A stretch of 64,000 nt of DNA. It comes from Octopus vulgaris. Lineage: Eukaryota. Where the stretch lies: assembly GCA_951406725.2 (NCBI GenBank), contig OX597818.1:102486001-102550000 (forward strand). Reading direction: 5' to 3'. The notes under the pieces are model-generated. The model had not been told where the DNA came from. It saw only the letters and a list, made by a program, of their open reading frames with translations, and ran no database searches. Positions 9,954 to 47,572 of the stretch are shown here, piece after piece. Every line of letters begins with the position of its first letter. Within the stretch, counting starts at the first letter, position 1. A program made the translations under genes and the position numbers.

Positions 9954-10046
9954 CCTTTCTTTCCTGATGAGAAGATTACATAATGCACTCTTTATTCCTT
10001 TGGAATGAAAACATGCTGTCTTCGAAACATATGTCGAGAGTAAAGG
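9954..10046 (+). ncRNA. Type I hammerhead ribozyme with enlarged stem II
   Basis: ctttc-CTGATGA-gaaga...tcttc-GAAA-catatg-TC-gagag; stem I ctttc/gagag extended by ccttt/aaagg; palindromic stem III; GUC triplet. Confidence 0.8.
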
Positions 10047-21699: not shown

Positions 21700-21740
<41 letters not shown>

Positions 21741-22108
21741 TTGTTGTTGAAAATACACCAAAATTTCAAAAACTCGTAATTGTTTAAAATACATTGATTT
21801 ACATATATACCAAACTAGTTTCAACAATAATTTTTGTTTATCAATTGTAAAAGTTTAAAATTATGAATTACAAAAAACATCTTTAAAAGTTTCAATTTTG
21901 ACAAATTCAAATGTTTCAATATGGACAAATTAACATGTTCAAAACAGATAAATTTAGCATTATGAATTCGGAGGACAGGTGTAAGTTCGAATGTTCATAA
22001 TACTGTATATCGATTTTTTTTAATGTAAAAAGTTCATTAATGCTAGTGGTGATCGACAAGTCATACTGAGTCATACTCATTAATGCTAGTGGTGATCGAC
22101 AAGTCATA

Positions 22109-22525
22109 GGCGCAGGAGTGGCTGTGTGGTAAGTAACTTGCTAAATAACCACATGGTTGCGGGTTCAGTCCCACTGCGTGGCATCTTGCGCAAGTGTCTT
22201 CTGCTATAGCCTCGGGCCGACCAATGCCTTGTGAGTGGATTTGGTAGACGGAAACTGAAAGAAGCCTGTCGTATATATGTATATATATATATATATATGT
22301 GTGCGTGTGTGTGTGTTTGTGTGTCTGTGTTTGTCCCCCTAGCATTGCTTGACAAGCGATGCTGGTGTGTTTACGTCCCCGTCACTTAGCGGTTCGGCAA
22401 AAGAGACCGATAGAATAAGTACTGGGCTTACAAAGAATAAGTCCCGGGGTCGATTTGCTCGACTAAATGCGGTGCTCCAGCATGGCCGCAGTCAAATGAC
22501 TGAAACGAGTAAAAGAGTAAAAGAG
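22109..22525 (+). mobile_element. Full-length SINE family 1 with internal (TA)(TG) microsatellite
   Basis: tRNA-like head ggcgcaggagtggctgtgtggtaag...gggttcagtccc; aagagtaa tail; near-identical to 45361-45793. Confidence 0.92.
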
Positions 22526-22818
22526 TTAAGCGGGGACAAAAGGGAGAGCTCAAAATATTTAAAAAAAAGGAATTTGGTTTACAGTTTCTCTGATCCTTTT
22601 CCCGTAGACATTTTCGCTTGTAGTGGTATGTTTTGGGATCAGATGTATTAACATTTATTTTACCGCGAGCGGATCTGATTTTGATTCGTTGAAATACTGG
22701 TGATATTTTTGTTGGTGATCGTTCTGCTTGGATGGGTTCCCTGTGGAGACGGCCATCAGTCGTTCTGGTTGGTTTGTTCTCTTAAAGGCTCATGTCGTTG
22801 TATTTGCTCGGTTCTTCA

Positions 22819-23020
22819 GGAATACGGAATAATTACCATACGATACAGGGTGGGAAAATTCCCAAATGACATTCCTGATCGAATCGGAAAAGAATTCATC
22901 GTTGAAGTAATAAAATTCCTCCTACAGAACATTTTCTTCAATTTCAACGAAAATACTTATTGACTGGTTTCTGGCAGGGTGATGGGAACGAAGGTAGCCC
23001 CTACTTCTGCCAACCGTTTT
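22819..23020 (+). pseudogene. Penelope-like reverse transcriptase fragment
   Basis: KFPNDIPDRIGKEFIVEVIKFLLQNIFFNFNENTY*LVSGRVMGTKVAPTSAN matches the PLE RT motif region (N.F.FN...Y.Q..G.AMGT..AP..AN). Confidence 0.8.
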
Positions 23021-23401
23021 TAATATTTTCAGTTCTCCCTCGTTATTCTTCCCACTTAACTCAGTATGACTTATTTATCAAAACTAACATTAATGAACTT
23101 TGTACATTCAAACGAATTGATATACAGTTTTAATATTATTGACTGCTATAAACATTCAAACGTTCAAATGTCCTAATTCATAATACTAAATTTATCTGTT
23201 TTGATCATGTTAATTTGTCAACATTGAAGCATTTTAATTTGTCAACATATTTTTAACTTTTACCATTGATACACACAAAATATATTGTTGAAACTAATTT
23301 GGTATGTATGAAAATAAATGTATTTTAAACAATTACGAGTCTTTCAAATATAAGTGCATTGTCAGTGGAAACACCCCTTCTTTTGTTATGTATGCATTAT
23401 A

Positions 23402-23467
<66 letters not shown>

Positions 23468-42106: not shown

Positions 42107-42148
<42 letters not shown>

Positions 42149-42175
42149 CATACACACACACATATATATATATAT

Positions 42176-42224
<49 letters not shown>

Positions 42225-42253
42225 TGTATATATATATATATATATATATTAAT

Positions 42254-42303
<50 letters not shown>

Positions 42304-42538
42304 AATTCATAATTAATCAATATAGGGTGGCAAAAAAATTTTGTAGAATCTTATTGCCACCAGCGGCCTAGTGGGAAAAAAATTAAATAGTCATAAACCA
42401 TTTTTAAGTTCAACATCACAATCAAGGAACGGCCATAATAGGCCATTCACCCACTAGAAATAACAGCCAAAAGCTTCAACCGCAAAATAACATCAATTCC
42501 GTAAACCAGGAGAAAATTAAAAAAACATTTACCCTGTA

Positions 42539-42645
42539 ATTTCTTATACGATGCACCGTTTCGTCTACTGTTTAATGGTAAACTAACCTGATTAAATTAA
42601 ATCAAGCCAATCTACCATAGGCCCTTAGATTCATCAGTAAGAAAT
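42539..42645 (-). ncRNA. Type I hammerhead ribozyme, element A copy 1
   Basis: Reverse complement of 43112-43218. Confidence 0.72.
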
Positions 42646-43111
42646 AGCCAAGTCGGAACAGATATTTTTCACGAGGCAAACTCGTCCCTGCCTCGGCAAT
42701 ATCTGACCTAAAATTTTCAAATCATCGCACTCGCGCCAAATTTATCGGCAGCAAATAAATATAAGCCGCCGATTCCATTACGGAACTAACCAGAAAATTC
42801 ATAATTAATCAATATAGGGTGGCAAAAAAATTTTGTAGAATCTTATTGCCACCAGCGGCCTAGTGGGAAAAAATTAAATAGTCATAAACCATTTTTAAGT
42901 TCAACATCACAATCAAGGAACGGCCATAATAGGCCATTCACCCACTAGAAATAACAGCCAAAAGCTTCAACCGCAAAATAACATCAATTCCGTAAACCAG
43001 GAGAAAATTAAAAAAATTTGGCGCGAGTGCGATGATTTGAAAATTTTAGGTCAGATATTGCCGAGGCAGGGACGAGTTTGCCTCGTGAAAAATATCTGTT
43101 CCGACTTGGCT

Positions 43112-43218
43112 ATTTCTTACTGATGAATCTAAGGGCCTATGGTAGATTGGCTTGATTTAATTTAATCAGGTTAGTTTACCATTAAACAGTAGACGAAACG
43201 GTGCATCGTATAAGAAAT
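43112..43218 (+). ncRNA. Type I hammerhead ribozyme, element A copy 2
   Basis: atttctta-CTGATGA-(68 nt, tcta/taga)-GAAA-cggtgcatcg-TA-taagaaat; 8-bp stem I, GUA triplet; A-C mismatch at the base of stem II. Confidence 0.72.
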
Positions 43219-43601
43219 TACAGGGTAAATGTTTTTTTAATTTTCTCCTGGTTTACGGAATTGATGTTATTTTGCGGTTGAAGATTTTGGCTGTTATTTC
43301 TAGTGGGTGAATGGCCTATTATGGCCGTTCCTTGATTGTGATGTTGAACTTAAAAATGGTTTATGACTATTTAATTTTTTCCCACTAGGTCGCTGGTGGC
43401 AATAAGATTCTACAAAATTTTTTGCCACCCTATATTGATTAATTATGAATTTTCTGGTTAGTTCCGTAATGGAATCGGCGGCTTATATTTATTTGCTGCC
43501 GATAAATTTGGCGCGAGTGCGATGATTTGAAAATTTTAGGTCAGATATTGCCGAGGCAGGGACGAGTTTGCCTCGTGAAAAATATCTGTTCCGACTTGGC
43601 T

Positions 43602-43708
43602 ATTTCTTACTGATGAATCTAAGGGCCTATGGTAGATTGGCTTGATTTAATATAATCAGGTTAGTTTACCATTAAACAGTAGACGAAACGGTGCATCGTA
43701 TAAGAAAT
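43602..43708 (+). ncRNA. Type I hammerhead ribozyme, element A copy 3
   Basis: Same motif 490 nt downstream of copy 2, with one substitution in a loop. Confidence 0.72.
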
Positions 43709-43827
43709 TACAGGGTAAATGTTTTTTTAATTTTCTCCTGGTTTATGGAATTGATGTTATTTTGCGGTTGAAGCTTTTGGCTGTTATTTCTAGTGGGTGA
43801 ATGGCCTATTATGGCCGTTCCTTGATT

Positions 43828-43868
<41 letters not shown>

Positions 43869-44080
43869 CAATGATAAATATCAAAGTGAGTTATATACAG
43901 TAGCGGTAACACATCGTGACGTATTTTTGCCATTTCAATATGGCTAACCCCTAAGGGTGGATGCTACTGTAGTTTTTAGCCCCAGGAGGACACACTCCTC
44001 CAGCTGGCCATAGACACACTATCTGTGTCCTGTCAGTATTTGCAAAGGGAAGTCATCCTTCCCGTCTTCAACTTATGATA

Positions 44081-44125
44081 CACACGGACTCGAGTTTCGA
44101 GGTATTGACCTCTCGTCAGCGTGTG
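44081..44125 (-). ncRNA. Canonical minimal type I hammerhead ribozyme
   Basis: cacacg-CTGACGA-gagg tcaata cctc-GAAA-ctcgag-TC-cgtgtg: perfect core, 6-bp stem I, palindromic stem III, GUC. Confidence 0.92.
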
Positions 44126-44423
44126 ACAATCATAGTTGTCGCCGAGAATTAGATTTCCTTCACAAATACTTATACTTTTTCCAGCGTCCACTGTCGCTGA
44201 TATTGAAAAAGTGAAATCAAACAATGATAAATATCAAAGTGAGTTATATACAGTAGCGGTAACACATCGTGACGTATTTTTGCCATTTCAATATGGCTAA
44301 CCCCTAAGGGTGGATGCTACTGTAATTTTTAGCCCCAGGAGGACACACTCCTCCAGCTGGCCATAGACACACTATCTGTGTCCTGTCAGTATTTGCAAAG
44401 GGAAGTCATCCTTCCCGTCTTCC

Positions 44424-44464
44424 CGCTGACGAGAGGTCAATACCTCGAAACTCGAGTCCGTGTG
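44424..44464 (+). ncRNA. HHR copy with the 5' strand of stem I truncated by the inversion
   Basis: cg-CTGACGA-gaggtcaatacctc-GAAA-ctcgag-TC-cgtgtg. Confidence 0.75.
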
Positions 44465-44630
44465 TATCATAAGTTGAAGACGGGAAGGATGACTTCCCTT
44501 TGCAAATACTGACAGGACACAGATAGTGTGTCTATGGCCAGCTGGAGGAGTGTGTCCTCCTGGGGCTAAAAACTACAGTAGCATCCACCCTTAGGGATTA
44601 GCCATATTGAAATGGCAAAAATACGTCACG

Positions 44631-44661
<31 letters not shown>

Positions 44662-47142: not shown

Positions 47143-47269
47143 CATGTATATATATATATATATATATATATATTTAACAATGAGGGAGATAAATTAATAT
47201 TAATTTTAATATCAATTTAAAACCAGTAGTCCAGCATACAAAAATCTGAGAAATCAGAGAAAATTCTAA

Positions 47270-47518
47270 TATATGTGTATATTGGCAGGGCTTACTGCTA
47301 GGGAGTCGGCCGTATGCTAGAAATAGACCATCAACGATCAAACTACAAGGAAATTCTCTAGAGGAAAAATACAGCGAACACCAGAACCAACTTTGGCGGG
47401 CATGACAGATGAAAATTTATATTAAAAACAGAATTTCCTCTAGAGAATGTCCTTGTAGTTTGATCGTTGATGGTCTATTTCTAGCATACGGCCGACTCCC
47501 TAGCAGTAAGCCCTGCCA

Positions 47519-47530
<12 letters not shown>
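47270..47530. repeat. ~97-bp near-perfect inverted repeat with ~65-bp spacer, within a TA-flanked insert (47175-47530)
   Basis: attggcagggcttactgctagggagtcggccgtatgctagaaatagacc... and its reverse complement at 47433-47530. Confidence 0.92.

Positions 47531-47572
<42 letters not shown>

Follow-up and report, generated by a model that had tools for sequence, protein, structure and literature searches.

A young, two-ended insertion of a hammerhead-bearing tandem element in the Octopus vulgaris genome, probably of the non-LTR retrozyme kind

Introduction

What process builds a short array of a non-coding, hammerhead-bearing unit whose tandem copies are joined head to head to an inverted arm of the same sequence? 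The question is raised by element A, which lies in the window, the whole 64-kb stretch of Octopus vulgaris DNA analysed here (C5:102486001-102550000 of genome G000). The DNA of the window is AT-rich, and its SINEs look octopus-like. A preliminary description of this stretch took element A for a young array able to release a 490-nt ribozyme-bounded RNA that could circularise, as retrozymes do. The reading favoured here, to which we give a probability of about two in three, is that of a young non-LTR retrozyme insertion in (TA)n, for which a Penelope-type RT/GIY-YIG enzyme acting in trans would have primed once per target strand, each time at a different site of the RNA.

Results

Two arms of a 490-nt unit joined head to head

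Self-BLAST of the window showed that 42303-42525 recurs at 42795-43016, that 43014-43342 recurs at 43504-43832 with a spacing of 490, and that 42415-43016 is inverted relative to 43232-43832 (602 nt, 99.2%), so that the coordinates and anatomy first given for the tandem-plus-inverted array were right. Unit positions are numbered from 43211, the first base after the predicted cut. The features are as follows.

42111..42302, no strand: left (TA)n-rich target microsatellite
42303..43016, minus strand: arm X, 714 nt, unit 22-490 then 1-242
42539..42645, minus strand: hammerhead 3, within arm X; C3 at 42637, predicted cut between 42547 and 42546
43014..43016, no strand: head-to-head joint of arms X and Y, a 3-nt overlap (AAA)
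43014..43832, plus strand: arm Y, 819 nt, unit 294-490, 1-490 and 1-132
43112..43218, plus strand: hammerhead 1 (type I); CUGAUGA at 43120, GAAA at 43195, predicted cut after 43210 (GUA)
43211..43700, plus strand: predicted cut-to-cut monomer, 490 nt, 36.5% GC
43313..43342, plus strand: hairpin, then putative proximal start site Y (unit 132, ending in TTGATTGTGAT)
43395..43446, plus strand: hairpin, then putative distal start site X (unit 236, ending in TTGATTAATTAT)
43602..43708, plus strand: hammerhead 2, motif as in hammerhead 1; CTGATGA at 43610, predicted cut after 43700
43833..43866, no strand: right (TA)n target microsatellite, common to element A and the neighbouring element B

The 3' end of arm X meets (TA)n at the family's distal fixed end (usually unit 236), and on the 5' side arm X stops 21 nt downstream of the cut site; the 3' end of arm Y meets (TA)n at the proximal fixed end (unit 132). 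The two plus-strand hammerheads are 490 nt apart, as had been claimed, and the 5' ends predicted at 43211 and 43701 agree with cuts after 43210 and 43700. The monomer is non-coding: the longest ATG frame in the plus arm is 26 aa and no RT or GIY-YIG ORF was found in the element, nor any convincing long ORF in the whole 64-kb window. It is also rich in hairpins, and each of the hairpin words originally named was located (ggtggcaa at 43395 with ttgccacc at 43422, cagatatt at 43542 with aatatctg at 43581, and ggcc..ggcc at 43313). The fold of the monomer has a z of -5.97, and folding is far more stable for the sense strand (-148.5 kcal/mol) than for the antisense (-95.8 kcal/mol). Because its copies show only 4 substitutions (43284, 43390, 43652, 43746), besides homopolymer indels, in ~1530 nt, the insertion appears to be young; the bases private to this locus in the monomer are 43284 A, 43390 T and 43652 A. 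In an alignment of the family, unit 335-372 (window 43545-43582) is hypervariable between lineages within an invariant stem (CAGATAT/ATATCTG), and the rest of the unit is ~95% conserved.

A variant hammerhead

All three hammerheads share an 8-bp stem I, CUGAUGA, GAAA and a GUA cut triplet. Stem II holds 68 nt between A9 and G12, its 4 bp being extended by a 19-bp G·U-rich hairpin (43139-43182 in hammerhead 1), and stem III has only 3 bp, with a palindromic stem III/loop at 43199-43208 in hammerhead 1. At the base of stem II the window copies carry an A10.1·C11.1 mismatch. A motif scan gave 5 hammerhead matches in the window, where 40 shuffled versions averaged 0.025; with stem I required to be 8 bp or longer, the figures were 3 and 0. 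An Rfam scan of the whole window found no family at gathering score, the hammerheads of element A included. A solitary type I hammerhead-like motif at 9955-10045 has C3 at 9964, G10.1-C11.1, a 53-nt stem II, a palindromic CATATG in stem III and a GUC triplet.

Across about 230-256 family copies the strict core positions are each at least 99% invariant, whereas each of the four bases is found at N7, and A or C at H17, as hammerhead rules permit. Taken alone, the invariance of the 11 strict core columns is borderline (p = 0.052 against 114/490 variable columns). Covariation is thin, with a two-sided change in 3/138 pairs, one in stem II and one in stem I. Among 234 copies the pair 10.1-11.1 is A-U in 143, A·C in 60, G·U in 30, G·A in 1 and G-C in 0; by loci of the X set (defined below), it is A-U in 48, A·C in 4, G·U in 9 and G·A in 1. 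G10.1-C11.1 is termed highly conserved in the available part of Cervera and de la Pena (2014, PMC4209133), where dimeric cleavage is also explained, and its occurrence in 0/234 copies means that cleavage activity may be low. The canonical geometry of G10.1-C11.1, a 4-bp stem II and a short loop 2 is thus not that of the family. Since accepted retrozymes such as axolotl Amex2 also have atypical stem II bases (PMC7229834, as far as its text was available), the departure from it marks a variant.

In one group of lineages TGCA in loop III is replaced by TATA, with the palindrome kept (36+ crossings). As an intermolecular duplex the stem III palindrome is predicted at -17.5 kcal/mol, against -0.2 for the hairpin. 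For the plus arm the predicted energies are -253.1 for a double hammerhead, -244.6 for two single hammerheads and -253.9 kcal/mol for the MFE, and the unconstrained fold already pairs both stem III palindromes. In these models, then, the palindrome favours a double hammerhead. Given the A·C mismatch at the base of stem II and the 3-bp stem III, the window hammerhead would likely cut weakly and as a dimer.

The opposite arm had been expected to turn any read-through transcript into a long dsRNA. Such a duplex is indeed predicted, but it conflicts with release of the monomer from the same transcript. In the full fold of a plus transcript entering from the left, 106/107 nt of hammerhead 2 are paired in the long duplex, and in the nascent form of that transcript hammerhead 1 is fully paired; the minus transcript has a single hammerhead, which is paired in its predicted full fold. 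Since left read-through pairs one hammerhead with its antisense copy, release of the 490-nt monomer would need a start inside the plus arm. The window locus is more likely a product than a source.

A dispersed family with two fixed ends

A DNA search of the genome (2.8 Gb, 227 contigs) with element A returned at least 207 matches, 40 of 1584 candidates having been scored. In exact pattern searches that required ATAT directly after the end, unit 236 (X ends) gave 820 matches and unit 132 (Y ends) gave 260 + 445 (most hits in the reverse count of 445 are listed twice), with 0 in the controls of both. The exact hammerhead motif has 636 matches in the genome, many of them in runs. A hand count on contig C1 (60 X, 38 Y, 15 in both listings) gave about 150 loci, which extrapolates, as a rough estimate, to some 1,900 loci genome-wide. 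Clustering of 109 full units from 57 loci yielded 20 clusters, with divergence of 1% or less within and 5.5% between them.

Element A sequence is also present in 23 sequencing runs from 8 studies under three organism labels, none of the runs being labelled as RNA, and contigs of three presumed-RNA runs and one large unlabelled run span all 29 bins of 43020-43503. Contigs start at 43211, 43212 and 43210 in X1, X2 and X6, among 8 pieces per run; since other pieces of X1 and X6 cross the cut, these starts are taken as no evidence. The private bases 43284 A and 43390 T are absent from the three presumed-RNA runs, which is uninformative, as the individuals differ and contigs drop rare variants.

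The X set comprises the first 100 of the 820 X ends and was selected on ATAT at one end. An inverted arm adjoins the X arm in 78/100 of these loci, and a short Y remnant was seen by eye in 4 more. The partner arm ends at unit 124-137 in 69/78, elsewhere in 9 and at 236 in 0/78. Reciprocally, in a Y-selected set of 27 elements, which come from 26 of the 38 places on C1 and share 7 members with the X set, the partner ends at 231-241 in 21/27, elsewhere in 2 and is lacking in 4, and a second Y end occurs in 0/27. In the window's own lineage, all 27 loci of which were scored, the combination X+Y was found 20 times, X+X 0 times and Y+Y 0 times. The two fixed ends (236 and 132) are 104 nt apart. (TA)n flanks the copies at the far end too, and does so in the unselected DNA-search and lineage sets. 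Arms reach 3019 and 3524 nt, and arrays contain up to 6-7 units.

These data suggest that the inverted arm is likely a regular by-product, or scar, of insertion; adjoining as it does in 78/100 loci, it is no evidence of a designed dsRNA. They also support the view that the family as a whole is a non-LTR retrozyme in kind, being non-coding, hammerhead-bearing, tandem and, to judge from its insertions, mobile through RNA. The original retrozyme-like label therefore holds at the level of the family, but sits less easily on the window motif with its A·C mismatch and 3-bp stem III. Searches of the main texts of papers turned up none that deals with this family or with retrozymes inserted from two ends.

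Arm 5' ends accumulate at the predicted cut

In the X set, 42/169 arm 5' ends fall in unit 1-30, which makes up 7.2% of the exposure (p 8e-13, hazard ratio 4.3; the interval 1-30 was picked after the data had been seen). The pile-up is repeated in the lineage set, with 7/40 at first pass (p 0.004) and 4/18 later. When the sets were pooled, 43/178 arms stopped in unit 1-30 at first pass and 10/81 did so later (p 0.008), against a background of 5%, the first-pass stops exceeding the later ones (Fisher 0.03). Both arms stop in unit 1-45 in 15/69 loci (Fisher 2e-7); when this joint test was redone to allow for a general tendency of arms to end together, 15/28 of the pairs lying within 30 nt of each other were in unit 1-45.

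Such a pile-up is what an RNA with its 5' end at the cut would leave, and so hints at hammerhead cleavage in vivo. RT stalling at stem I could yield a similar pattern; hairpins stronger than stem I show a smaller 5'-end excess. The excess on later passes is compatible with partly cut linear multimers and also with circles.

A second, smaller cluster of 5' ends (16/206, p 0.015; L073, L098, L103, L107, L113, L134, L144, L162, L260, L261) coincides with the foot of stem II, upstream of the cut by 2-30 nt, and possibly reflects RT stalling on uncut or circular RNA. At junctions where both arms stop near the cut (L074, L094, L116, L136, L142) there are often short T/A-run repeats of 18-44 nt, which resemble templated insertions of end joining.

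Homogeneous arrays favour passage through a single unit

No ligation or template-jump scar was found at the cut, 254/254 crossings being without an indel. Divergence is 0.44% between units within an arm, 0.65% between opposite arms and 5.3% between loci. The nearest other locus lies at a median of 0.27%, against 0.48% for opposite arms, and the opposite arm is the closer of the two in only 18/60 loci; with lineages this nearly identical inside, matched arms do not prove a single RNA molecule. In 647 cases a lineage allele is shared by every copy at its locus, and in 85 the copies are mixed, a count that keeps the 39/85 mixed cases from L101, L132, L111 and L130, each of which has a second, separate insertion. 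Locus-private alleles are fixed in all copies in 16 cases, 11 of them across both arms, and occur in some copies only in 123; the fixed ones are carried by up to 5 copies, on both arms. As patterns of sequence, the fixed alleles and homogeneous arrays favour passage through a single unit, as on a circle, without proving it.

The foremost alternative is Penelope-type insertion from linear RNA only, that is, from uncut or partly cut multimers with no circle and with a hammerhead that is weak or nearly vestigial. It would account for the enrichment near the cut on later passes (10/81) and for the absence of G10.1-C11.1 from all copies. It would also agree with the dispensability in vitro of the PAc hammerhead, where the main substrate is unprocessed RNA (PMC11167929, available text), and with the 8/9 Xenopus dimers without cleavage in the accessible part of bioRxiv 10.64898/2026.07.22.740005. 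We nevertheless consider it unlikely, since arrays of 6-7 units are homogeneous (0.44% within arms) though lineages differ by 5.5%, linear copying alone is unable to lengthen arrays, the fixation of private alleles in as many as 5 copies, both arms included, suggests a one-unit bottleneck, and the first-pass ends outnumber the later ones.

Priming at two sites and the candidate enzyme

Under the favoured reading, retrozyme insertion by a Penelope-type enzyme in trans, both target strands would be nicked and extended, one from site X and the other from site Y, the two sites being used probably on one RNA molecule. Joining of the two cDNAs at their far ends would give the inverted arm. The hammerhead would cut in vivo, weakly and as a dimer through its stem III palindrome. 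About a fifth of arms, beyond background, would have run off the RNA 5' end at the cut, and arms reading through cut sites would have come at least partly from religated circles, which would explain the homogeneous multi-unit arrays.

The choice of enzyme follows from the shared layout of insertions. Penelope-like element (PLE) insertions have partial tandems, an inverted 5'-truncated copy, a (TA)n bias and a one-sided 30-40 bp tail (Craig 2021, PMC8557442). In vitro the tail corresponds to the distance from one internal RT start site to the other, cleavage and extension take place on both target strands, and a protein dimer is predicted (Frangieh 2024, PMC11167929; both sources as far as available). 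The RT-GIY-YIG element L215 (C5:102478000-102486000, 3-5 kb to the left of the window) is itself inserted as back-to-back arms, whose ends are separated by about 38 nt. As these insertions and L215 share the layout of element A, we infer that element A used an enzyme of the PLE kind.

A search for GIY-YIG partners gave at least 148 matches (150 of 6136 candidates scored), and 50 loci were examined. BLAST of the plus arm against these 50 loci returned only an inserted family fragment and hits at E 0.48, and local alignments of the plus arm and of the 45-55 nt before either end were no better than shuffles. A pattern that combined a short stem II with the stem III palindrome of element A matched once, in a family fragment. 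L204 (91-3794) and L215 belong to one young two-ORF Penelope-like family with a 479-aa ORF1 without convincing Pfam match, a 781-aa RT-GIY-YIG ORF2 that is intact in many copies, a long repeat-rich 3' region and a non-canonical hammerhead-like motif.

The right (TA)n run is also occupied by element B (window 43867-44632), which belongs to a different, younger family with a 353-nt unit; many copies are 99-100% identical (at least 171 matches, with 40 of 2612 candidates scored). Its layout is back-to-back like that of element A, with ends 46 nt apart, and its hammerhead is compact, with G10.1-C11.1 (minus strand, 44119; a truncated copy at 44426 on the plus strand). Older or shorter inverted repeats lie in the window at 21702-23433 (411 nt at 71% identity) and 47269-47532 (99-nt arms at 98%).

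Mobilisation of the RNA by a LINE-type enzyme, with the inverted arm arising by classical twin priming on AT microhomology, is improbable. It could draw on the ends, both of which finish in AT able to pair with (TA)n, and on the failure to find a PLE partner by sequence among the 50 GIY-YIG loci. In L1 twin priming there is one fixed 3' end, and the second priming site is variable and lies upstream of the breakpoint. Here, by contrast, both ends are fixed and the arms overlap in sequence, the element has no poly(A) or simple-repeat tail of its own, and an RT-GIY-YIG element of the same genome (L215) has a layout of this kind.

A DNA-level origin, in which a satellite-like or fold-back repeat spread by duplication and hairpin repair with an incidental hammerhead, is very improbable. 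Some junctions do have both 5' ends at one position (163/163, 294/294, 57/57), as fold-back gives. Yet the Y arm holds sequence that the X arm could not have templated in 40/69 loci, the window copy included, and more than 100 nt of it in 26; this largely refutes a DNA-level origin, and fold-back of one arm as the source of the other was rejected for most loci. Also against it, only the RNA-sense 3' side has fixed ends, those of the 5' side being variable; the sense strand is the better folded; and variation spares the catalytic core but hits N7.

Finally, an assembly artefact from collapsed or chimeric reads at a TA run, which the TA runs on both sides might invite and which the preliminary description had already argued against, is practically negligible: the layout recurs at dozens of loci on many chromosome-scale contigs, copies carry private substitutions, and the tandem joint is present in 8 contigs of the independent run X19.

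Discussion

PLE hammerheads proved dispensable in vitro (Frangieh 2024, PMC11167929), and the case for PLEs as mobilisers of animal retrozymes has been built on co-occurrence and pLTR similarity. The window locus alone adds little beyond one clean example of its family. With its copies estimated at well over a thousand, the family constrains the insertion process in three ways: each putative start site gives a single arm, the two sites are offset by 104 nt, and 5' ends cluster at the cut. The model is testable in the existing in vitro assay, as the template measures 490 nt and the genome also contains a young RT-GIY-YIG gene that is intact.

A more specific version, which we put forward tentatively and hold to be possible rather than probable, is that a Penelope RT dimer binds one retrozyme RNA molecule, circular or newly cut to a monomer, at two sites that are marked by hairpins and separated by 104 nt, and extends one strand, giving one arm, from each. 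A single reaction with two ends, running on a rolling template, would then account for the inverted repeats, tails and tandems of PLEs. The hammerhead would be kept weak (dimer-only, never G10.1-C11.1) so that circles persist, and genomic copies would record germ-line cleavage. The origin of the tandem and inverted structures of PLEs is stated as open in the available part of Craig 2021 (PMC8557442).

Among known systems, element A resembles the metazoan non-LTR retrozymes, for which PLEs have been proposed as the mobiliser (PMC7229834; bioRxiv 10.64898/2026.07.22.740005; here and below, comparisons refer to the portions of the cited papers that were available). Both have a tandem unit that is non-coding, low in GC and provided with a single type I hammerhead, a short palindromic stem III suited to dimeric cleavage, and copies dispersed as monomers to multimers. 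The 490-nt unit is above the 150-450 of Cervera (PMC7229834) and within the 51-972 of Li (bioRxiv 10.64898/2026.07.22.740005). Element A differs in its 68-nt stem II and lack of G10.1-C11.1, in its back-to-back arms with two fixed ends, which those portions do not describe for retrozymes, and in that no pLTR homology was found among the 50 GIY-YIG loci examined.

With EN+ PLEs (PMC8557442, PMC11167929, PMC4209133) element A shares partial tandems, an inverted 5'-truncated copy and (TA)n targets. Its two fixed ends, both downstream of the hammerhead cut, may correspond to the pair of RT start sites whose separation sets the one-end tail of PLEs. Unlike them it has no RT or endonuclease ORF, and its putative tail is 104 nt rather than 30-40 bp. 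Compared with PAc, which showed no strand difference in vitro, element A pairs one arm with each site strictly; and whereas its 5' ends are enriched at the cut, the PAc RNA-seq in the accessible text shows no reads ending there, cleavage not being needed in vitro (PMC11167929).

The non-autonomous Chlamys elements such as MRC1 (PMC8557442) are likewise non-coding PLE dependants with multicopy head-to-tail insertions. Those elements resemble their autonomous partner at the 3' end, whereas element A matched none of the 50 GIY-YIG loci, and a hammerhead is not mentioned for them in the part of that paper available. On the sequence evidence as a whole, element A would seem to work like a non-LTR retrozyme and to insert like a PLE.
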